Shown here piece after piece: positions 43,208-52,653 of a stretch of 64,000 nt of DNA. Numbering within the stretch: the first letter of the stretch is position 1; each line of letters opens with the position of its first letter. The DNA is from an uncultured Candidatus Rokubacteria bacterium (GTDB taxonomy: Bacteria > Methylomirabilota > Methylomirabilia > Rokubacteriales > CSP1-6): assembly GCA_963771355.1 (NCBI GenBank), contig CAVYTA010000006.1, positions 2,272,001-2,336,000 on the forward strand, given 5' to 3'. A program made the translations under genes and the position numbers. Below the pieces are notes generated by a model. That model did not search any database and was not told where the DNA came from. It saw nothing but the letters and a program-made list of their open reading frames with translations.

Positions 43208-43374
43208 TTCGCCTACACGCTAAACGCGAGCAATCAAGTGATACAGACCGATGTGAGCAACCCCTCGGCTCTGCTTCCCGTGCCGGAGGCGGTCGCCCCG
43301 TTCTTGGTCTCCGTCAACCCGACATAGGGTGCCGGTCTCGGACGCCGGCCACCCCAGGAGCCGACGGCACAGCG

Positions 43375-43640
43375 ATCCCACGATGCCGCGGTGGCGCGAA
43401 GCGGACGGGCGCGTCAAGCTCTCGGCGGCGTGGCTCATCGAACACGCGGGACTGCGCCGCGGAGACGGGCCGGGTCCCGTCGCACTGTCCACGCGCCACC
43501 GCCTCGCCATCGTCTGCCGCGAGGGATCGCGTGCGGCCGACGTCACCGCTTTCGCGCGCGAGATCCGCGCGCGGGTTGAGGCTCGCTTCGGTATCCGCCT
43601 CGTCCCCGAGCCCGTCTTCTGGGGCGCGCCGCCGATGTAG
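43375..43640 (+). pseudogene. murB: C-terminal fragment of UDP-N-acetylmuramate dehydrogenase
   Basis: VKLSAAWLIEHAG, STRHRLAI, AREIRARVEARFGIRLVPEP; FAD-binding N-terminal part absent. Confidence 0.75.
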
Positions 43641-43649
43641 AATGCCTGG

Positions 43650-44708
43650 ATGAAGCGTCGGTATCGGGCCGTGCTCGTCGGCTGCGGGGCGCGCGGACAG
43701 AGCCATGCGCTTGGCCTTCTCGCGAATCGGGACCGGTTCGAGCTGGTGGCGCTCTGCGATCGGGACGCCGCGCGCCTCGGCGCGCTCGCGCACACGCTTG
43801 GCATCACGCGCGTCTACTCCGACGCCGAGGCCATGCTCGCCGCCGAGCGCCCCGACCTGCTCTGTTTCGCCACCCCGCCGGCGGTGCGGGTCGAGCTCGT
43901 CGAGCTCGGGGTGCGGCATGGCGTTCGTGCGATCGCGCTCGAGAAGCCGCTCGCGCTCTCGCTGGCCGACGCCCGGCGCATTGTCGCGCTCTGCGCGGGC
44001 GGCATACAGGCCGTCGTCTGCCATCAGCTCAAGCACGCCGGCCATTGGCGGCGGATCAAGCAGATCGTGGAGGAGGGCGGCATCGGGGAGATCCGGTCCT
44101 TCCACGCTACTGCCCGTCCGTCGATGCTGCGGGTGGGCACCCATCTCGTCGATGCCATGCTGTGGCTCGGCGGGGGCATGCAAGCGACGTCGGTCCACGG
44201 CCAGGCTCAGGGGCGCCTAGCTTATCTCGAGGACCATCCTTGTCCTGATCACGCGGCGGGCGTCGTCGAATTCGCGAGCGGGGTCCGCGGTTTCCTCGAG
44301 ATCGGCTCTCTGGCGCCTCGTCACCTCGACGAGGGCGACTTTTGGGGCGATGTGGCTGTCACGGTCCGGGGCGCCCGGGGCCATGCACGCGTGGTGCTGG
44401 GTGGCGGGTGGGAGGCGGTCACGCGGTGGTCCGGAGGCCGGGTTGAAACCGGGCCCGCCGATGTCTCGCCGGGCGAGCCCGAGCATATGCGCCTTCTGGC
44501 CGACTGGCTGGACGATCCCCGGCGGGTGCATCCGTCAAATCTCAAGACGAGCTACCACGGCTTCGAGATCCTGATGGGCCTCGCGCTGTCGAGTCTCGAG
44601 CGCCGCCGCGTCGATCTACCCATCGCCGGGACTCCTGAAGCCATCCTGGAGCGACTCAGGGATGCGCTTCCAGAAGACGAGCGTCCGGCCGCCCGGGCTT
44701 CATCGTGA
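43650..44708 (+). CDS. Gfo/Idh/MocA family oxidoreductase
   Basis: VGCGARG, LCD, ATPP, EKPLA, GTHLVD; TAGAAT 6 nt before ATG. Confidence 0.88.
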   Translation: MKRRYRAVLVGCGARGQSHALGLLANRDRFELVALCDRDAARLGALAHTLGITRVYSDAEAMLAAERPDLLCFATPPAVRVELVELGVRHGVRAIALEKPLALSLADARRIVALCAGGIQAVVCHQLKHAGHWRRIKQIVEEGGIGEIRSFHATARPSMLRVGTHLVDAMLWLGGGMQATSVHGQAQGRLAYLEDHPCPDHAAGVVEFASGVRGFLEIGSLAPRHLDEGDFWGDVAVTVRGARGHARVVLGGGWEAVTRWSGGRVETGPADVSPGEPEHMRLLADWLDDPRRVHPSNLKTSYHGFEILMGLALSSLERRRVDLPIAGTPEAILERLRDALPEDERPAARASS

Positions 44709-45469
44709 TCGCGCTCCGAGCGGTCACCAAGCGCTTTGGTGGTCGCCTCGCGCTCGACGGCGTGTCGATCGAGGTGCGTGCCGGCGCCGTCCATGTGCTG
44801 CTGGGCTCGAGTGGCTCGGGCAAATCGACGGTCCTGCGACTCATCCTCGGTCTCGTGGAGCCGGACGGGGGCGAAGTGCTGGTGGACGGGACGCCCGTGA
44901 CCGAGTCCACGCGGGCCGGGCTGGTGAGACGCATGGGCTACGTGGTGCAAGACGGCGGCCTCTACCCGCATCTGACCGCGTACCAGAACGTGGCGCTTCC
45001 GGCGGAAGCGCACGGCTGGCCGTCGGCGCAGACTCGCGCGCGCGCGGGCGAGCTGGGGGCGATGGTGGGACTCGACGGAGACAGCCTGCGCGCCTACCCC
45101 CGCGAGCTCAGCGGGGGACAGCGCCAGCGTGTCGGACTCATGCGGGCGCTGGTGCTCGACCCGCCCGTGCTTCTCCTCGACGAGCCGCTCGGATCGCTCG
45201 ACCCGATCGTCCGGGCCGAGCTCCAGGGCCAGCTCGGCCGGCTCTTTGCGGCGCTCGGCAAGACCGTCGTGATGGTGACCCACGATATCCGCGAGGCGGC
45301 TCTCCTCGGCAGCACCATCACCCTCATGACCGCCGGCCGCATCGTCCAGCAGGGGGCGTTCGCCGACTTGGTCGAGCGGCCCACCTCGCCGTTCGTGACT
45401 CAGTTCCTGACCGCTCAAACGCTCGCTCCCGGCCAAACACTCGCTCCCGGGGATTCAGGGGCCCGATAA
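44705..45469 (+). CDS. ABC ATPase, osmoprotectant (OpuA/ProV-like) importer
   Basis: GSSGSGKS, GYVVQDGGLYPHLT, LSGGQRQR, LLDEP, VTHD. Confidence 0.92.
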   Translation: MIALRAVTKRFGGRLALDGVSIEVRAGAVHVLLGSSGSGKSTVLRLILGLVEPDGGEVLVDGTPVTESTRAGLVRRMGYVVQDGGLYPHLTAYQNVALPAEAHGWPSAQTRARAGELGAMVGLDGDSLRAYPRELSGGQRQRVGLMRALVLDPPVLLLDEPLGSLDPIVRAELQGQLGRLFAALGKTVVMVTHDIREAALLGSTITLMTAGRIVQQGAFADLVERPTSPFVTQFLTAQTLAPGQTLAPGDSGAR

Positions 45470-45472
45470 CAC

Positions 45473-46966
45473 ATGCGGCCGCTCGTGGCGGGTGCCGCGC
45501 TCGTGGCTCTGCTGCTGCACGGATTCGGCGTCAGCGCCGCGCAGGACGGAGTCATCCGTGTCGGGTCGAAGTCCTTCACGGAAAGCTACCTCCTCGCGGA
45601 AATCGCGGCACAGGTTATCGAGCAGGCTGGAGAGGCCCGCGTCGAACGGCGGCTCGGCCTCGGCGGCACCGGTATCACCTACCGGGCCATCGCCTCGGGC
45701 GCGATCGACCTCTATCCCGAATACACGGGCACGCTCACCCGCGTCATCCTGAAGGACCCGGCGCTTCGCATACCCGAGGCGATCCGCGCGCGCCTCCGGC
45801 CATCGGGGCTGACGATGAGCGAGCCCCTCGGCTTCAACAACACGTATGCGCTCGCGGTCCGCGTCGACACCGCCGAGCGTTTGGACCTAAAGAGCATCGG
45901 TGACCTCGTGCGTCACCAAGAGCTCACCGCGGCGTTCAGCTCAGGTTTTCTGGAGCGCGAGGACGGCTGGCCGGGACTCAGGCGCCACTACGGCCTGTCG
46001 CTGGCTCGCGTACGGGTGATGGAGCACGCCCTGACGTACCGGGCGCTCGCCGGCGGCGAGGTGGATGTCATGGACGTCTTCTCGACGGACGGGCAGCTCG
46101 AGCGCCTGCGACTTCGGATTCTCCGGGACGATCGGGGCTTCTTCCCGGACTACTCGGCGGTGCTCCTGGCCCGCCGGGAAATGGCCGAGCGATTCCCGCG
46201 CACGTGGGCGCGGCTCCGTCAAGCCCTCGAGGGATCACTCGACGACCGGCGCATGGCTGAGCTCAACGCGATGGTGGACCTGGACGGCAAGAGCATCCCC
46301 GAAGTGGCCGCCGCCGTCGCGGGCGCGGCACTGCCGGACGCGCAGGCCAGACCGGGCATCGTGACGGAGATCTACGCCCTCACGCTCGACCACCTGGTCC
46401 TCGTCCTGGTCTCCCTGGCCGCCGCCATCGTCCTGGGCGTGCCGTTGGGCATCGCCGCGGCACGGTTCCGGCGGATCGGTCAGGTCGAGCTCGGCGCCAT
46501 CGGCATGCTGCAGACGGTCCCGGCCCTGGCGCTCCTCGTGTTCATGATCCCGCTCTTCGGGATCGGCAAAGGTCCCGCCCTCGTCGCCCTCTCCCTGTAC
46601 GCGCTCCTCCCCATCGTGCGCAGCACCTACGCCGGGATCATCGGGATCGATCGCCATCTCCTGGAGATCGCCTTTGTGCTCGGGCTCGGCCGCCTCGCGC
46701 GCCTGGTCCGCATCGAGCTCCCGCTCGCCTCCATCAGTGTCATGGCGGGGATCAAGACCTCCGCCGTCATGACGGTGGGTACGGCCACGCTCGCCGCGTT
46801 CATCGGCGGCGGCGGCTATGGAGCGCTGATCGTGCGGGGCTTGGCGCTGGATGACACCGCGACGATCCTGGCCGGGGCCGCGCCCGCCGCGGCGATGGCG
46901 GTGGCGTTTCACGTGGTCTTCGAGTTTCTGGACCGTCTCGCGATCCCGCGCGGCCTCCGCCGCTAA
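45473..46966 (+). CDS. Fused betaine-type substrate-binding protein plus ABC permease
   Basis: VGSKSFTE, IDLYPEYTGT, GFNNTY, REDGW, FFPDY; then QTVPALAL, IELPLA, AFIGGGG. Confidence 0.9.
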   Translation: MRPLVAGAALVALLLHGFGVSAAQDGVIRVGSKSFTESYLLAEIAAQVIEQAGEARVERRLGLGGTGITYRAIASGAIDLYPEYTGTLTRVILKDPALRIPEAIRARLRPSGLTMSEPLGFNNTYALAVRVDTAERLDLKSIGDLVRHQELTAAFSSGFLEREDGWPGLRRHYGLSLARVRVMEHALTYRALAGGEVDVMDVFSTDGQLERLRLRILRDDRGFFPDYSAVLLARREMAERFPRTWARLRQALEGSLDDRRMAELNAMVDLDGKSIPEVAAAVAGAALPDAQARPGIVTEIYALTLDHLVLVLVSLAAAIVLGVPLGIAAARFRRIGQVELGAIGMLQTVPALALLVFMIPLFGIGKGPALVALSLYALLPIVRSTYAGIIGIDRHLLEIAFVLGLGRLARLVRIELPLASISVMAGIKTSAVMTVGTATLAAFIGGGGYGALIVRGLALDDTATILAGAAPAAAMAVAFHVVFEFLDRLAIPRGLRR

Positions 46967-47787
46967 CCTCCGGAGTCGAGGAGGGCGTTGAGGCGGCTGC
47001 ACGCCGCGATGACTTCGCGGTCCCTGCCCGGGAACCACGCCCGGATCCATTGCGGGCGCTCAAAGAAGGCCAGCGGAGGCCGTGCGCGGCGCCTGATACC
47101 CACCCGGAGCACGAGGCCGCTGGCATTGATGAAGCTCACGTCCTCCAGCATGCGTCCCACCCCGGCCACGCCGACGGTGACCGGGCAGAGCTTCGCGACG
47201 GCAGCGATCGAATCCGAGACGCCGCGAAGGCAGAAACCGTGGGTCCGGGGCAGGACCACGGGCGGCAGGGCCTCGAGGACGCTTCGCAGGGTGAGACCCG
47301 AGAATACGGTGTCGTCCACCACGGCGAGCGACTCGGAGGCAGGGAAGCCTTTGAGCCCGCCGGCAAGCTGGGCGGCGAGTGTGGCCGGCACGGTACTGAC
47401 GAGATGATAGTCTCCACGCCCGTCCTCCTCTCGAGTAAGCCCGAGGCGGTGAACGCGCGGGAACCAGCCGGTCTTCGCGTGGAGCGCCTGGGCCGCGCGC
47501 TCGCCGGCTCGGCCGATGCCGAGGGCAAGATCGAATGGGGCATGCCGACCCTGGGCGATGACACGCTCGACCTGCTCGGCCAGCGTGAGGACCACGACCC
47601 TCTCGGGGTCTCTTTTCAGGAGGGCGAAGAGGGAGCGGGTGAGGGCGGCGGCGGGGGAGGCGGGACCGAGACGCTCCGCCACTTCGTCGCTCAGATCGTC
47701 GTGGACGTACAGCAGTCGGGGCGTGGGCTGCGCGTAGGCCCCGCGGTCCGGCTCGTCCACGCCGCGGGACGTGTCAGCCGGCGGCAT
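46963..47787 (-). CDS. Hypothetical protein with phosphoribosyltransferase-like PRPP loop
   Basis: LAVVDDTVFSGLTL and LGIGRAG; start overlaps the Sec-redoxin 3' end. Confidence 0.65.
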   Translation of the reverse strand: MPPADTSRGVDEPDRGAYAQPTPRLLYVHDDLSDEVAERLGPASPAAALTRSLFALLKRDPERVVVLTLAEQVERVIAQGRHAPFDLALGIGRAGERAAQALHAKTGWFPRVHRLGLTREEDGRGDYHLVSTVPATLAAQLAGGLKGFPASESLAVVDDTVFSGLTLRSVLEALPPVVLPRTHGFCLRGVSDSIAAVAKLCPVTVGVAGVGRMLEDVSFINASGLVLRVGIRRRARPPLAFFERPQWIRAWFPGRDREVIAACSRLNALLDSGG

Positions 47788-48310
47788 CCGGCTGGGGCCC
47801 ACGATAGACGTAGTCGCCTCGACAGCGCTCCATCATCGCGCGCATGTCCTGGCGCAGCTCCTCGAGCGTCGGCCGTCCGACATACCACCAGCCGTTGTAG
47901 ATCCGATGAATCGTGAGATCAGGCAGGAGCGAGAAGGTGAACGGCAGGGCGAGGAGACCGTGCCGGAATGCCGGCGGCGTCGCCTCGACGATGTCGAGGC
48001 GTGAGATGACGCGCCGCTCGTGATCGCTCAGGAACGTAAAGGTGGCGCCGAGTCCTGCGCGGAACGCCGCCGAGACCTCGGGCGGGTCCGTCGAGACCAC
48101 CGCGAGCTTGCAGTAGTTGACGGCGAGTTCGTCCTGGAGCTCGGTCAGGTGCCGCAACTGGCACCCGCACTTCGGTCACCAGTACCCGCGGTAGAAGCTC
48201 ACGATGAGCGGGAACTCGCCCGCGAGCGCGGAGAGGCGGACCGGCTCGGCTCGATGATCGGGCAGCTCGAGATCCGGGAACTGCTTGCCGACGGCCAGAT
48301 GTGGGTGCAC
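47774..48310 (-). CDS. AhpC/TSA (peroxiredoxin-like) selenoprotein, UxxC (Sec at codon 45, TGA 48176-48178), 178 aa
   Basis: AGGAGG RBS, GTG start; VGKQFPDLELPDH..VRLS..FYRGYW-U-PKC..AVVSTD..FTFLSD in a single frame. Confidence 0.85.
48146..48167 (-). promoter_or_regulatory. Putative bacterial SECIS hairpin
   Basis: CGGGUGCC-AGUUGC-GGCACCUG starting 8 nt after the UGA; G is the second loop base. Confidence 0.65.
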
Positions 48311-48321
48311 GAAATATCCTC

Positions 48322-49296
48322 CTAGCCCGAAGCGGCAACCGCGAGGGCGAAGTAGCTCTCCGAGTCGGTGTGCCAGGTCTCGAGGCGAAGCCCGGCCTCT
48401 TCGAGCATGGCCTGGGCCCCGGCGCGGCTGAACTTGTAGGAACTCTCCGTCCAGATGTTTTCGTCCGGCGAGATTCGAATGGTCAGCTCCAGGCGGCGAA
48501 GATGCACCACCTGCGTCGAGTCGGGGACGAGGTGCATCTCGATGCGGGCCGCAGGCTCGTTGTAGAAGGCGACGTGCCGGAAGGCCGTGGGGCGGAAGTC
48601 GGCGTCCGCGCCGTGGTTGACGACGTTGAGGATGTTCCGGTTGAACTCCCGGGTGACGCCGCTCGCGTCGTTGTATGCGGCTTCGAGCACCGTGACGTCC
48701 TTGACGAGGTCGAGGCCGAGGAGAAAGCGATCCTCCCGGCTACGGAGGAGCGCGCGCACCTGGGAGAGCAGCCGCAGCCTGGCCGGAGGGTCGAGGTTGC
48801 CGATCGTGCTCCCGAGGAAGAGCACGAGGCGGCGGCCGACCGGGGAGGGCACGTGCTCCAGGTGCCGCTCGAAGTCACCCACGAGGGCGCGCACGTCGAG
48901 GAACGGGTAGTCGGAAATGAGGCGGGCCGCGCTGGCTTGCACGGTCAGCTCGTCGACGTCGATCGGAACGTAGCGCAGGCGATCCGGCAGGCCATTCCGG
49001 CCATCGAGGAGCCGGCGGGTCTTCGACGCCGATCCCGGACCGAGCTCTACGATGTCCTGGGGCTGCAGCTCGCGCATGAGCCGTGGCGCGAGCGTGTCGA
49101 GGAGCGCCGCTTCCGTCCGCGTCAGGTAGTACTCGGGAAGCTTGGTGATGTCTTCGAACAGATTGGATCCGATGACATCGTAGAAGTACTTCGAAGGCAG
49201 GGTCTTGGGGCTTGCCGTGAGCCCGCGGCGCACGTCTTCCTCGATCCTTGTGCGCCTGTCGGTTTCGTTCGTATACGCGTACGCGCGATAGCGCAT
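48322..49296 (-). CDS. egtD: L-histidine N-alpha-methyltransferase
   Basis: LPSKYFYD..GS.LFE.IT.LPEYYLTRTE, VELGPG, FLGSTIGN, DLVKD...AYND, RIEMHL, TESSYKF. Confidence 0.92.
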   Translation of the reverse strand: MRYRAYAYTNETDRRTRIEEDVRRGLTASPKTLPSKYFYDVIGSNLFEDITKLPEYYLTRTEAALLDTLAPRLMRELQPQDIVELGPGSASKTRRLLDGRNGLPDRLRYVPIDVDELTVQASAARLISDYPFLDVRALVGDFERHLEHVPSPVGRRLVLFLGSTIGNLDPPARLRLLSQVRALLRSREDRFLLGLDLVKDVTVLEAAYNDASGVTREFNRNILNVVNHGADADFRPTAFRHVAFYNEPAARIEMHLVPDSTQVVHLRRLELTIRISPDENIWTESSYKFSRAGAQAMLEEAGLRLETWHTDSESYFALAVAASG

Positions 49297-49488
49297 TATG
49301 GTCGTCGGCCCGAGGCGGGGGGCATGTGGCGACCCCCGCCGCGGACCTTCGAGGGTAGACTGCCTCGGGTCAACTCGCAAGCGTTGCTTGAGATGCGCGA
49401 CTGGGGTCCGGCGCTTTCGGTCGCCGTGGGGCCCATCCCGACGTACACTTCCTGGCAGTGCTCGCTAGGACCATAGGGAGGGTTCTCC

Positions 49489-50820
49489 ATGGCTGAGACG
49501 GTTGGTGAGCGGCTCGCTGGCGTATGGGCGCGCACGGACCGGATCTTCGAGATCCTCGCGCCCGGGGCCTTCCTCGCCCAGCCGATCGCGCTGCGCCACC
49601 CGTTCATCTTCTATGTCGGGCACCTCCCCGCCTTCGCCTGGAACCACGTGTGCGTGGGTGTCCTCGCACGGCCCTCCTTCAACGCCGCGTTCGATGAGCT
49701 CTTCTCCCGCGGCATCGATCCCGATGTGGACGACCCCAGCCACTGCCACGCTCACCCGGAGATCCCGGATCGCTGGCCGACCGTGGCCGAGGTGCTCGCC
49801 TATCGTGATCGCGTCCGGGCCTCGGTGCTCGAATCCGTGGACGCGGTGACGGAGCGGGCCGGGTCGCATCTCATGGCCCGGGATGGGCGCGTCTTCTCGA
49901 TGGTGATCGAGCACGAGCTCATGCACCAGGAGACGCTCCTCTATATGCTCCAGGAGCTCGCTCTCGACCGGAAGGTCCGTCCCGCCTGGCTCCCGCGCGA
50001 TGTGACCGGCCGCGGCCGACCCCCGGCCACGGTGCAGGTGCCCGCGGGGACGGCGACGCTCGGCGCGGCGTTCACCGACCTGGCATTCGGCTGGGACAAT
50101 GAATTCCCCCCGGCTCAGGTCTTCGTGCCGGGTTTCCGCATCGACGAGACGCCGGTGACGAACGGCCAGTTTCTCGCCTTCGTGGACGACGGAGGATACC
50201 GGCGCCGCGAGCTCTGGGCTGCCGATGACTGGGGATGGAACCGTGAGGAGACCCTCGCTCATCCGCGGGTGTGGACGAACCAGGACGGGCGGTGGCTCTA
50301 CCGCGGCCTCTTCGATCTCCTCCCGCTCGAGCGCGTGATGGATTGGCCCGTGTACGTCAGCCTGGCCGAGGCGCGGGCGTATGCGCGCTGGCGTGGTCTG
50401 CGCCTGCCCACGGAGGCGGAGTTCCACCGGGCGGCTTTCGGCGATCCACGGGGACCCGAGCGTGCCTTCCCCTGGGGGGCAGGCGCTCCCGGGGAGCGAC
50501 ACGGCAACTTCGACTTTCGCCACTGGGCGCCGACGCCCGTGGGCACGTACCCCGAGGGCGCGAGCGCGTGGGGTGTCTACGACCTCGTCGGCAATGGGTG
50601 GGAATGGACCGAGACGCCGTTCGCGGGTTTTGCGGGTTTCGAGGCGTGGATCCCCGGATATTCCGGCTACTCAGCCGATTTCTTCGACGGCAAGCACTTT
50701 GTCCTCAAGGGCGGTTCGTGGGCGACCGCCGCGGAGCTTGTACGGCGGAGCTTCCGCAACTGGTTCCAGGCGCACTATTCGTACGTGTTCGCCACGTTTC
50801 GCTGTGTCGAGAGCCCCTGA
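49489..50820 (+). CDS. egtB: Non-heme iron sulfoxide synthase (DinB + FGE-sulfatase), fungal-Egt1-like motif set
   Basis: LRHPFIFYVGH, RGIDPDVDD, EHELMHQE (H-x3-H-x-E), FGWDNE, RLPTEAE, GNGWEW, GYSADFFDG, RNWFQ. Confidence 0.85.
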   Translation: MAETVGERLAGVWARTDRIFEILAPGAFLAQPIALRHPFIFYVGHLPAFAWNHVCVGVLARPSFNAAFDELFSRGIDPDVDDPSHCHAHPEIPDRWPTVAEVLAYRDRVRASVLESVDAVTERAGSHLMARDGRVFSMVIEHELMHQETLLYMLQELALDRKVRPAWLPRDVTGRGRPPATVQVPAGTATLGAAFTDLAFGWDNEFPPAQVFVPGFRIDETPVTNGQFLAFVDDGGYRRRELWAADDWGWNREETLAHPRVWTNQDGRWLYRGLFDLLPLERVMDWPVYVSLAEARAYARWRGLRLPTEAEFHRAAFGDPRGPERAFPWGAGAPGERHGNFDFRHWAPTPVGTYPEGASAWGVYDLVGNGWEWTETPFAGFAGFEAWIPGYSGYSADFFDGKHFVLKGGSWATAAELVRRSFRNWFQAHYSYVFATFRCVESP

Positions 50821-50991
50821 CGCCGATCGCGCGCGCGAGATCCTGCGTTTCTCTGCGCCCCGGTTCGCTTGGGCTATGACCCCGCAAGGTTGTGCCGGAG
50901 TCCGGGCCCGAATGCAATCGGGCTCGCGCACCTCGGGTGTATCGTGACCGAGGAGGCCGCCGCCGGGGAGCCCGGCACGGCCGGCCACATC

Positions 50992-52653
50992 ATGGCAGAC
51001 CCGTACCTGGGCCGTCGCGACCAGATGTTCCCCCGGCTGACCCCGGCTCAGATCGAACGGATCTCCGCGGTCGGCGAGCGTCGCAGCGTCCGCTCGGGCG
51101 AGGTGCTGTTCGAGCTCGGGGAGCAAAACACCCGCTTCTTCGTGGTCATCGAGGGCGCCGTCGAGATCGTGCGCCCGGTCGACGGTCGTGAACAGCCGAT
51201 CGTGGTGCACGGCCCCGGCGAATTCACGGGCGAGATCAACATGCTATCCGCGCGCCGCGCCATCGTCCTCGGGCGGGCTCTCGGCGACGGGTCGATCGTC
51301 GTCGTCGATCGTGAGCATCTGCGCGCGCTCGTGCAGCGAGACTTCGAGCTCAGCGAGATCCTCATGCGTTCCTTCATTCTGCGGAGGGTGGCGCTCATCG
51401 CCCACGGCGACAGCGGCCTGGTCCTCATCGGCTCTCGGCATTCGGCAAACACGCTACAGATCAGAGAGTTCCTGACTCGAAACGCGCAGCCGTTCACATA
51501 CCAGGACGTGGAGAGCGACCCGGACGTGCAGGCGCTCCTGGATCGGTTCCAGGTCGGGGTCGACGACGTGCCCGTGGTCGTGTGCGAGGGGGGCCAGGTG
51601 CTGAGGAACCCCTCGATCGAGGCACTGGCCTCGGGGCTCGGCCTGAGCCCCGAGTTCGACGCCGGGGTGACGAGGGACGTGGTCATCGTTGGCGCGGGAC
51701 CGGCGGGTCTCGCGGCCGCGGTCTACGCCGCATCGGAGGGGCTCGACGTGCTGGTGCTCGAGACCACCGCGCCCGGCGGCCAGGCCGGCTCGAGCTCACG
51801 CATCGAGAACTATCTCGGATTCCCCACCGGCATCTCCGGCCAGGACCTGGCTGGGCGTGCGCTCATGCAGACCGAGAAGTTCGGCGCGGAGGTGGCCATC
51901 GCCCGGGGGGCCGTCGGTCTCGACTGCACGTCGAAGCCCTACGCGGTCCGCCTGGCGACCGGCGAAGTCGTGCGTACGAGGACCGTCGTCATCGCCAGCG
52001 GCGCCAGGTACCGGAAGCCCGCCCTCTCGGAGCTCTCGCGTTTCGAGGGAGCGGGCATCATGTACAGCGCCACCCACGTCGAAGCGCAGCTCTGCAAGGA
52101 GGAGGAGATCGCCATCGTGGGGGGCGGCAATTCCGCCGGACAGGCGGCCGTCTTTCTCTCGCAGAGCTCGGCCCAGGTGAACGTGCTCGTGCGAGGCCCG
52201 GGGCTCGCGGCGAGCATGTCGCGCTACCTCATCCAGCGAATCGAAGACAGCTCGAACGTGGTGCTGCGTGCGCGCACGCAGATCGACGCGCTCGAGGGAA
52301 CCGACCGCCTCGAGGGGATCCGCTGGCGCCATCTCGACACCGGACAATCGCAGACGCGCCCGATCCGTCACCTGTTCCTGATGACCGGCGCCGACCCGAA
52401 CACCGCCTGGCTCGGCGGATGCGTGGTGCTTGACGACAAGAACTTCGTCAAGACCGGCGCCGAGCTCCACCCCGATGAGCTCGAAGAGGCGGGATGGCCT
52501 CTCGCCCGCCGGCCCGATCTGCTGGAGACGAGCATGCCGGGTGTCTTCGCGGTCGGCGATGCACGGTCGGGCAGCGTCAAGCGTGTGGCGTCGGCGGTGG
52601 GCGAGGGCTCGGTGTGCGTCCAGCTCATCCACCGGGCGCTCCGTGAGCTGTAG
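50992..52653 (+). CDS. Cyclic-nucleotide-binding domain fused to thioredoxin reductase-like FAD domain
   Basis: cNMP domain (GPGEFTGE), GAGPAG, SSRIENYLGFPTG, GGGNSAGQ, FAVGD..SVKRVASAVGEG; YSAT in place of CxxC. Confidence 0.88.
   Translation: MADPYLGRRDQMFPRLTPAQIERISAVGERRSVRSGEVLFELGEQNTRFFVVIEGAVEIVRPVDGREQPIVVHGPGEFTGEINMLSARRAIVLGRALGDGSIVVVDREHLRALVQRDFELSEILMRSFILRRVALIAHGDSGLVLIGSRHSANTLQIREFLTRNAQPFTYQDVESDPDVQALLDRFQVGVDDVPVVVCEGGQVLRNPSIEALASGLGLSPEFDAGVTRDVVIVGAGPAGLAAAVYAASEGLDVLVLETTAPGGQAGSSSRIENYLGFPTGISGQDLAGRALMQTEKFGAEVAIARGAVGLDCTSKPYAVRLATGEVVRTRTVVIASGARYRKPALSELSRFEGAGIMYSATHVEAQLCKEEEIAIVGGGNSAGQAAVFLSQSSAQVNVLVRGPGLAASMSRYLIQRIEDSSNVVLRARTQIDALEGTDRLEGIRWRHLDTGQSQTRPIRHLFLMTGADPNTAWLGGCVVLDDKNFVKTGAELHPDELEEAGWPLARRPDLLETSMPGVFAVGDARSGSVKRVASAVGEGSVCVQLIHRALREL

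Follow-up and report, generated by a model that had tools for sequence, protein, structure and literature searches.

Selenoproteins with a UxxC motif in a PF00578 (AhpC-TSA) domain are listed in Table 1 of a 2026 review (PMC13188914), and peroxiredoxin (Prx)-like UxxC selenoproteins also appear in Table 2 and Dataset S1 of the 2008 GOS study (PMC2398784). A further group, PRX_like2 (cd02970), is described as having a CxxC-type motif without the Prx triad's two remaining residues (PMC3514251). We analyzed a stretch of 64,000 nucleotides (the window) from an uncultured Candidatus Rokubacteria bacterium. Judged by its sequence, one gene of the window belongs to the first of these classes, as it has the defining features of PF00578 UxxC selenoproteins.

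The gene shares the PF00578 domain and the UxxC position with the Prx-like thiol:disulfide oxidoreductase ("Prx-like 1") proteins, and the GOS dataset holds sequences of the same FYRG-x-W-U-P-x-C type (PMC2398784). Its subfamily differs from the Prx-like class in that the Cys homologs are monothiol (C-x-x-D/E), other Sec members read U-x-x-D, and this gene carries a third Cys. A term search of the GOS supplements returned 0 occurrences of the subfamily signatures YNGWW and GRPTxEE (PMC2398784), and the U-x-x-D motif is absent from the table of the 2026 review (PMC13188914). Compared by description only, the gene fits the PRX_like2 motif. In none of nine family members scanned did the redoxin domain reach the cut-off of an NCBIfam model; in this gene, the BCP model scored 36 against a cut-off of 140, and the SelL-related redox model NF040769 scored 37.9 bits against 120. 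Literature listings showed nothing relevant on UxxD or UxxCxC proteins or on selenoproteins in egt/sen clusters. The BSepDB homology search of more than 64,000 genomes probably files some members under Prx-like. Haft and Tolstoy (2025) or Deng et al. (2026) could already list the subfamily.

The gene lies on the minus strand and runs from a GTG start codon (48310-48308) to a TGA stop (47776-47774). A second TGA (48178-48176) is codon 45, within FYRGYW-U-PKCGCQ, and reading it as Sec yields a protein of 178 amino acids. A preliminary description of this DNA had placed the in-frame TGA at the first Cys of a FYRGxWCPxC-type motif and had taken the upstream frame for the N-terminus, preceded by an AGGAGG ribosome-binding site; we find both arrangements as described. 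The AGGAGG (48323-48318), which shares bases with the TAG stop of the upstream egtD, is separated from the GTG by 7 nt, and purine-rich, AGGAGG-like stretches precede the aligned starts in most orthologs. The Pfam AhpC-TSA match crosses the TGA (residues 7-131; E 2.5e-20; 73.1 bits against a gathering cut-off of 26). The preliminary description had named no strand; a plus-strand reading of 47774..48310 gave a nonsense frame and was rejected. The features of the locus are collected in Table 1.

Table 1. Coordinates of the selenoprotein gene, its sequence elements, and its neighbors in the window
Feature	Position	Strand	Basis or remark
AhpC/TSA (Prx-like) selenoprotein gene, 178 aa, GTG start to TGA stop	47774..48310	-	Translation with TGA as Sec, Pfam, orthologs, model
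Shine-Dalgarno-like AGGAGG	48318..48323	-	Overlaps egtD stop codon
In-frame UGA, predicted Sec45, first position of UxxC	48176..48178	-	TGA kept in close and wider loci
Cys48, second position of UxxC, predicted resolving Cys	48167..48169	-	Asp/Glu in family Cys forms
Cys50, extra Cys; codon in 5' arm of SECIS stem	48161..48163	-	33/74 Sec genes; compensatory change
Predicted bacterial SECIS hairpin	48146..48167	-	Comparative stem test and compensatory pairs
Pro123, at Prx catalytic Arg position	47942..47944	-	Invariant in 102/102 family rows
egtD, histidine N-alpha trimethyltransferase, directly upstream	48322..49380	-	TIGR03438, 339.6 bits against cut-off 290.9
PRTase-like gene of unknown function, 279 aa	46963..47802	-	First possible start overlaps selenoprotein 3' end by 29 nt
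Sulfoxide synthase, divergent, closest solved relative EgtB type IV	49489..50820	+	PDB E 2e-63; below EgtB, OvoA, and SenA cut-offs
Betaine-type ABC transporter, convergent: ATPase and fused binding protein/permease	44705..46966	+	Travels with cluster

Gene calling has missed this reading frame, as the preliminary description had claimed. A plain ORF list shows only a 127-aa piece downstream of the TGA. The best 120 database matches are all 105-140 aa long and span 58-71% of the selenoprotein query, and a simple pattern search found the N-terminal motifs absent from 119 of them. The 44-aa N-terminal half, ending in FYRGYW, stands as a separate database record (P0240). The annotation error is systematic, with public gene calls splitting the subfamily into pieces of 44 aa and about 127 aa. 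A possible second Sec near the C-terminus was also considered and rejected; the second TGA of some orthologs in family f4 is the real stop, and those proteins end at about 164 aa.

A conserved in-frame UGA aligned with the Cys of homologs marks bacterial selenoproteins, and this pattern is found here. In three locus sets that overlap in part, codon 45 is TGA in all 24 close loci (the window and 23 relatives), again in 24 of 24 further loci of the phylum, and in 59 loci of a wider genome collection, where another 19 have TGC or TGT and none has any other codon (78 of 80 loci aligned over the site). The Sec/Cys pairs that the preliminary description had proposed to look for are thus present. The closest TGA-form records are mostly labeled Methylomirabilota or Rokuibacteriota; more distant ones carry labels including Entotheonella, Binatia, Acidobacteria, and Poribacteria. 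A 60-aa database fragment (P0171) that reads CPKCGCQ at 86% identity may be a Cys reversion or an error and was left out.

Could the TGA instead stem from a nonsense mutation or a sequencing error, or encode Trp, the gene being a pseudogene or artifact? The hairpin energy of the single sequence is unremarkable, and as many as 705 chance candidates in this genome of 70% GC satisfy a loose rule of hairpin plus motif, as such a reading would allow. However, the same TGA recurs in many phyla, alternating only with Cys codons, and TGA is also the real stop at the end of this gene and in orthologs. Contigs from independent sequencing runs agree as well: two from DNA runs (X10, X12) and one from an RNA library (X17) reach across 48146-48178, where none has a gap or a change. 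These three runs were not flagged as a possible source, and the contigs compared came from 4 of 24 listed runs. Thus contigs, rather than the raw reads that the preliminary description had proposed to inspect, bear out the sequence over the motif. The codon counts and the contigs together refute the artifact, pseudogene, and Trp readings, which we consider exceedingly improbable. RNA-library contigs X15 and X17 overlap part of the gene, though neither strand nor transcription can be read from contigs.

The genome also has the machinery for Sec insertion, another check that had been suggested. It encodes selA, selB, and selD, all over cut-off, and tRNA-Sec (selC) at 69 bits; tRNA-Sec, selA, and selB cluster on one contig (C7), and selD lies on another (C4). 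Across the genomes searched, which cover 50 of the 80 wider loci, selA was matched in 27 of 31 TGA-form genomes compared with 11 of 19 Cys-form genomes. Of the four TGA-form genomes without a selA match, three do carry selB and tRNA-Sec. In the fourth, G291, whose completeness is not given, searches for selA, selB, and tRNA-Sec found no sel gene. Taken together, the sequence evidence makes 47774..48310 almost certainly a real selenoprotein gene, with predicted Sec insertion at codon 45.

The organism appears to be rich in selenoproteins, and its SelD is a Cys form. A motif-plus-hairpin scan of its genome for more selenoproteins was dropped, its candidates being mostly spurious, in favor of a family profile search. 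That search gave 10 matches, of which 7, this gene included, have an in-frame TGA at a Cys-type position. The six other thioredoxin-fold frames are at C6:327695+, C6:1824799-, C1:159966+, C6:1073718-, C7:781333+, and C6:246980-. Three FdhA genes of the genome carry TGA-His. In family f4, the convergent neighbor at loci L018, L019, and L029 is a second UxxC redoxin candidate (LRHYG-U-IFC).

The 8-bp hairpin that had been reported after the UGA is present, and its significance emerges only across orthologs. Its arms (48167-48160 and 48153-48146) include one G-U pair and enclose the loop AGUUGC (48159-48154), which begins 16 nt after the UGA. In this single sequence, the hairpin is not significant (fold z -0.3 to -1.1), and an 8-bp stem arises in 150 of 5000 synonymous shuffles of this one gene. 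We ran the proposed SECIS check as a comparative test, for which the loop position was chosen from the Sec genes themselves and in which related genes are not independent. The mean stem was 5.5 bp in 74 distinct Sec genes, compared with 2.3 bp in synonymous shuffles (2.85 in the best of 300 shuffled sets) and only 1.9 bp at the same position in 18 Cys genes. Stems of at least 4 bp occurred in 73 of the 74 Sec genes, 29% of synonymous shuffles, and 3 of the 18 Cys genes.

Codon choice and base pairing follow the same pattern. The Leu at +7, whose codon supplies the loop, is encoded by TTG or TTA in 51 of 51 cases, compared with 8% elsewhere in the same genes, and TTG makes up 7 of 357 Leu codons in eight neighboring genes of the window. 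Across 26 hand-picked genes with a 6-nt loop, 89.7% of stem cells pair, compared with 18-45% in slid controls, and three stem pairs change on both sides. The comparative test thus reveals what defines a bacterial SECIS, a hairpin just 3' of the UGA with an early G in the loop. From established Sec biology, SelB-GTP-Sec-tRNA would bind the G-U loop of this hairpin and insert Sec. A broad U-P-K-D branch of the family (L080-L116; e.g., L083:4112 and L110:4112), with labels including Acidobacteria, Poribacteria, Chloroflexota, and Planctomycetota, has a 4-nt AGUU SECIS loop. Several Cys forms nest inside that branch, and some of them still keep the hairpin.

The preliminary description had pointed to an extra Cys giving U-P-K-C-G-C and had allowed that this last Cys might come from a compensating pair of indels, with C-R-V-Q as the alternative reading. 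The extra Cys is real. Across the 74 distinct Sec genes, the position of Cys50 holds Cys in 33, Val in 16, Arg in 4 (together with Cys48), and Phe in 1, and the remaining 20 have the U-x-x-D pattern. A sequencing slip is contradicted both by the 33 genes that share the Cys and by the independent contigs, which show no gap or change. A C-x-V-Q form does exist in nature, in the 16 Val genes, where the same 3' stem arm is paired with the register shifted by one base; this form is real evolution, a one-base register shift of the SECIS stem.

Cys50 appears to be conserved yet dispensable, and we favor the view that it is tolerated because its codon completes the SECIS stem. Cys50 would then be a by-product of RNA pairing, since Val or Arg can take the place of the residue and its codon is part of the stem. 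At this codon, TGC changes to CGC (Arg) while the partner His codon changes to an Arg codon, replacing a U-A pair with C-G. The four compensatory C-G cells come from one clade and therefore count as one event. Across the family, the +5 residue follows its RNA pairing partner (Cys/His, Arg/Arg, Arg/Ala or Thr, and Leu/Glu). On a motif-masked tree, the third Cys changes state five times, with at least two changes forced by strong branches. All U-x-x-C forms group against a C-P-R-D sister group in two motif-masked trees (SH-aLRT 92 and 100), both of them quick trees with support by SH-aLRT only. The trees leave out frameshifted or short loci (L028-L030, L048, L091, L095, L096, and L106), and the second also omits 17 near-identical rows and all UxxD, CPKD, and CPKE rows. 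Cys48 itself appears, from these sequences, to have been gained in one all-Sec clade.

Alternatively, Cys50 could have a function, serving as a metal ligand or as another resolving thiol, and U-x-x-C-x-C would then be a three-chalcogen site of a distinct kind. Its presence in the 33 Sec genes, early-branching rows of the clade included, fits such a role, and function could also explain why it is kept across orthologs that are about 65-70% identical. In addition, locus L030 reads U-P-K-G-Q-C, with Cys48 gone and Cys50 kept, but L030 is frameshifted. We find a functional role somewhat unlikely. In close relatives, Val or Arg stands in place of Cys50, and one strongly supported clade contains both Cys and Val forms. 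The residue of Mycobacterium tuberculosis BcpB aligned with Cys50 is a Lys, not the BCP resolving Cys, and, placed two residues along the helix from Cys48, Cys50 would by helix geometry face away in the model. A reading of U45 and C50 as a BCP-type CxxxxC pair was also rejected, because the registers differ and the BCP resolving Cys aligns with Arg53. With Cys50 read as the product of RNA pairing, the locus clearly illustrates how residues of an active site are shaped by an in-frame SECIS, and its striking U-x-x-C-x-C may be an RNA by-product.

As to the enzyme itself, the preliminary name of a UxxC peroxiredoxin-like selenoprotein stands for the selenoprotein; the peroxiredoxin part holds as a likeness only, two of the three Prx catalytic residues being absent. 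U45-P-K-C48 sits at the start of the active-site helix (residues 46-56) in a confident AlphaFold2 model (pLDDT 94.6, pTM 0.89), which is the UxxC arrangement of Prx-like selenoproteins. The nearest solved folds are BCP/PrxQ and AhpE (TM 0.70-0.78, 16-23% identity), and the sequence similarity to BCP/PrxQ is weak (E 3e-10). Aligned with peroxiredoxins, BCP/PrxQ and Sec-Prx among them, Sec45 takes the place of the Prx Thr, Arg41 that of the Pro, and Pro123 that of the catalytic Arg. The gene therefore reads R41xxxU45xxC48 where a true Prx has PxxxTxxC/U, and its C-terminal half has Pro123 in place of the catalytic Arg. We take Pro123 to match the thioredoxin cis-proline.

The Cys forms of the family are monothiol, with C-x-x-D/E in 19 of 19 genome loci and in 92 of 104 aligned representatives (among 150 listed). 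The first position is therefore the working residue, and we infer that a thiol-disulfide or sulfenic-acid reductase is most likely. The missing Prx triad likewise makes the selenoprotein a likely thiol-disulfide reductase. Based on sequence, codon 45 is thus probably read as Sec in a thioredoxin-fold U-x-x-C general thiol-disulfide/sulfenic-acid reductase rather than a true peroxiredoxin. In such an enzyme, the selenolate of Sec45 would attack an oxidized sulfur substrate, Cys48 would release it via an Se-S bond, and the cellular thioredoxin or small-thiol system would re-reduce the enzyme.

The same site could also belong to a selenium peroxidase in which Sec45 attacks hydroperoxides directly, without the Prx triad, and Cys48 resolves. 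The top fold matches are consistent with this, as are the nearly invariant Arg41 and Gln51 near the active site, and the monothiol motif of the Cys forms fits one-Cys chemistry. In contrast, the redox residue conserved throughout the family occupies the first position, that of thioredoxin. Asp or Glu stands at the Prx peroxidatic position in 50 of 102 rows, and all 102 have Pro in place of the catalytic Arg. A peroxidase is therefore doubtful, and we prefer the reductase. Another Cys, Cys67 of a VNYC motif (48112-48110, minus strand), recurs in 88 of the 102 family rows, monothiol forms included, and is a possible distant resolving Cys. Five Cys-form relatives with C-P-R/K-D (P0123, P0127, P0148, P0152, and P0153) bear a C-terminal extension, which in P0123 scores as a cold-shock-like domain, below cut-off.

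The gene order around the selenoprotein resembles egt and senABC clusters: the EgtB-IV-like synthase (divergent), egtD, the selenoprotein, the PRTase-like gene, and the convergent ABC transporter. Here, egtD and a sulfoxide synthase flank the gene, and at an Entotheonella-labeled locus senA and senB do so. The transporter is possibly one for ergothioneine, by analogy with EgtUV. We considered the EgtB-like protein of the window as a SenA or OvsA and rejected both, since it is below the SenA cut-off and nearer to EgtB-IV than to OvsA or SenA structures. A scan of genes at 39-56 kb revealed no egtE-like lyase. Of 100 distinct loci of the selenoprotein family, 17 adjoin egt/sen genes (UxxCxC, 13 of 34; other UxxC, 4 of 18; UxxD, 0 of 18; Cys forms, 0 of 13), a count in which the flanks of 17 loci did not extend far enough for a judgment and many flanks were only 1.5 kb. 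The adjacent synthase varies, being EgtB-IV-like in the window, canonical EgtB in L180, L181, and L184, and SenA with SenB in L182. The last, at L182:2548-7764, is the Entotheonella-labeled locus, where senA, senB, egtD, the selenoprotein, and the PRTase-like gene occur together, with a DinB/mycothiol-transferase-like gene downstream.

The PRTase-like gene is the closest companion of egtD, which it adjoins in 29 of the 30 best loci, and it also lies near egt/sen genes in L180-L182. Within the family to which this genome belongs, 72 of 158 genomes carry it, whereas searches of other families in the phylum found no copy. The copy in the window has no Pfam match, and 3 of 4 orthologs scanned gave weak, sub-cut-off matches to PF00156. 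The gene could be an undescribed step of thiohistidine metabolism. Passages of the senABC preprint (bioRxiv 10.1101/2022.04.13.486033) and the literature listings showed no redoxin or PRTase-like partner.

One interpretation of this neighborhood is that the selenoprotein is a dedicated partner of ergothioneine or selenoneine synthesis, reducing the terminal sulfenic or selenenic acid or recycling oxidized ergothioneine. It directly follows egtD, with its ribosome-binding site overlapping the egtD stop; 17 of 52 informative UPKC-clade loci adjoin egt/sen genes, compared with 0 of 31 UxxD or CxxD/E loci; and the link persists with three different synthases, SenA and SenB of L182 being over cut-off. 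Earlier studies are consistent with a need for reduction: EgtE releases a sulfenic acid that requires a reductant (PMC4493562), the selenenic acid from SenA requires reduction or disproportionation (bioRxiv 10.1101/2022.04.13.486033), and reduction of ergothioneine disulfide by mammalian TrxR is selenium dependent (PMC8868364). However, the selenoprotein gene is absent within 1.5 kb in 20 of the 30 best PRTase-like loci, all of which lie beside egt genes, and none of the 21 genomes of genus g46 has the selenoprotein, while 20 of them carry the PRTase-like gene. In family f4 the UPKCQC motif is retained, but an egtD match was found in only 1 of its 16 genomes, below cut-off, so egtD does not occur wherever the selenoprotein does. 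Moreover, 35 of the 52 clade loci are unlinked to egt/sen genes, the linked loci are related to one another and could share a single origin, and small thiols are able to carry out sulfenic or selenenic reduction without an enzyme. A dedicated role is thus unlikely.

A more elaborate scenario would have an undescribed subfamily, passing from U-x-x-D to U-x-x-C and then to U-x-x-C-x-C, recruited to egt/sen clusters as a sulfenic/selenenic reductase or ergothioneine recycler, with the PRTase-like protein as a second unknown step and the SECIS-born third Cys catalytic. We regard this as quite improbable. The ergothioneine link is real but optional, because one family (f4) keeps the selenoprotein without egtD, and it may be a single inherited arrangement. 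Oxidized ergothioneine would be the best substrate lead in this lineage, as a candidate only. The egt/sen neighborhood nevertheless gives a cheap, testable substrate hypothesis for an uncharacterized class of Prx-like selenoproteins.

Two further reading frames lie near the cluster. At 43329-43640 (plus strand), a 103-aa ORF matches only the MurB C-terminal domain, with no MurB N-terminal part seen among the adjoining ORFs, and is possibly a remnant. Directly after the EgtB-like gene, at 50869-52653 (plus strand), a cyclic-nucleotide-binding domain is fused to a thioredoxin-reductase-like domain. This fusion protein is a candidate electron donor, and just one further locus (L037) has its gene next to the cluster.
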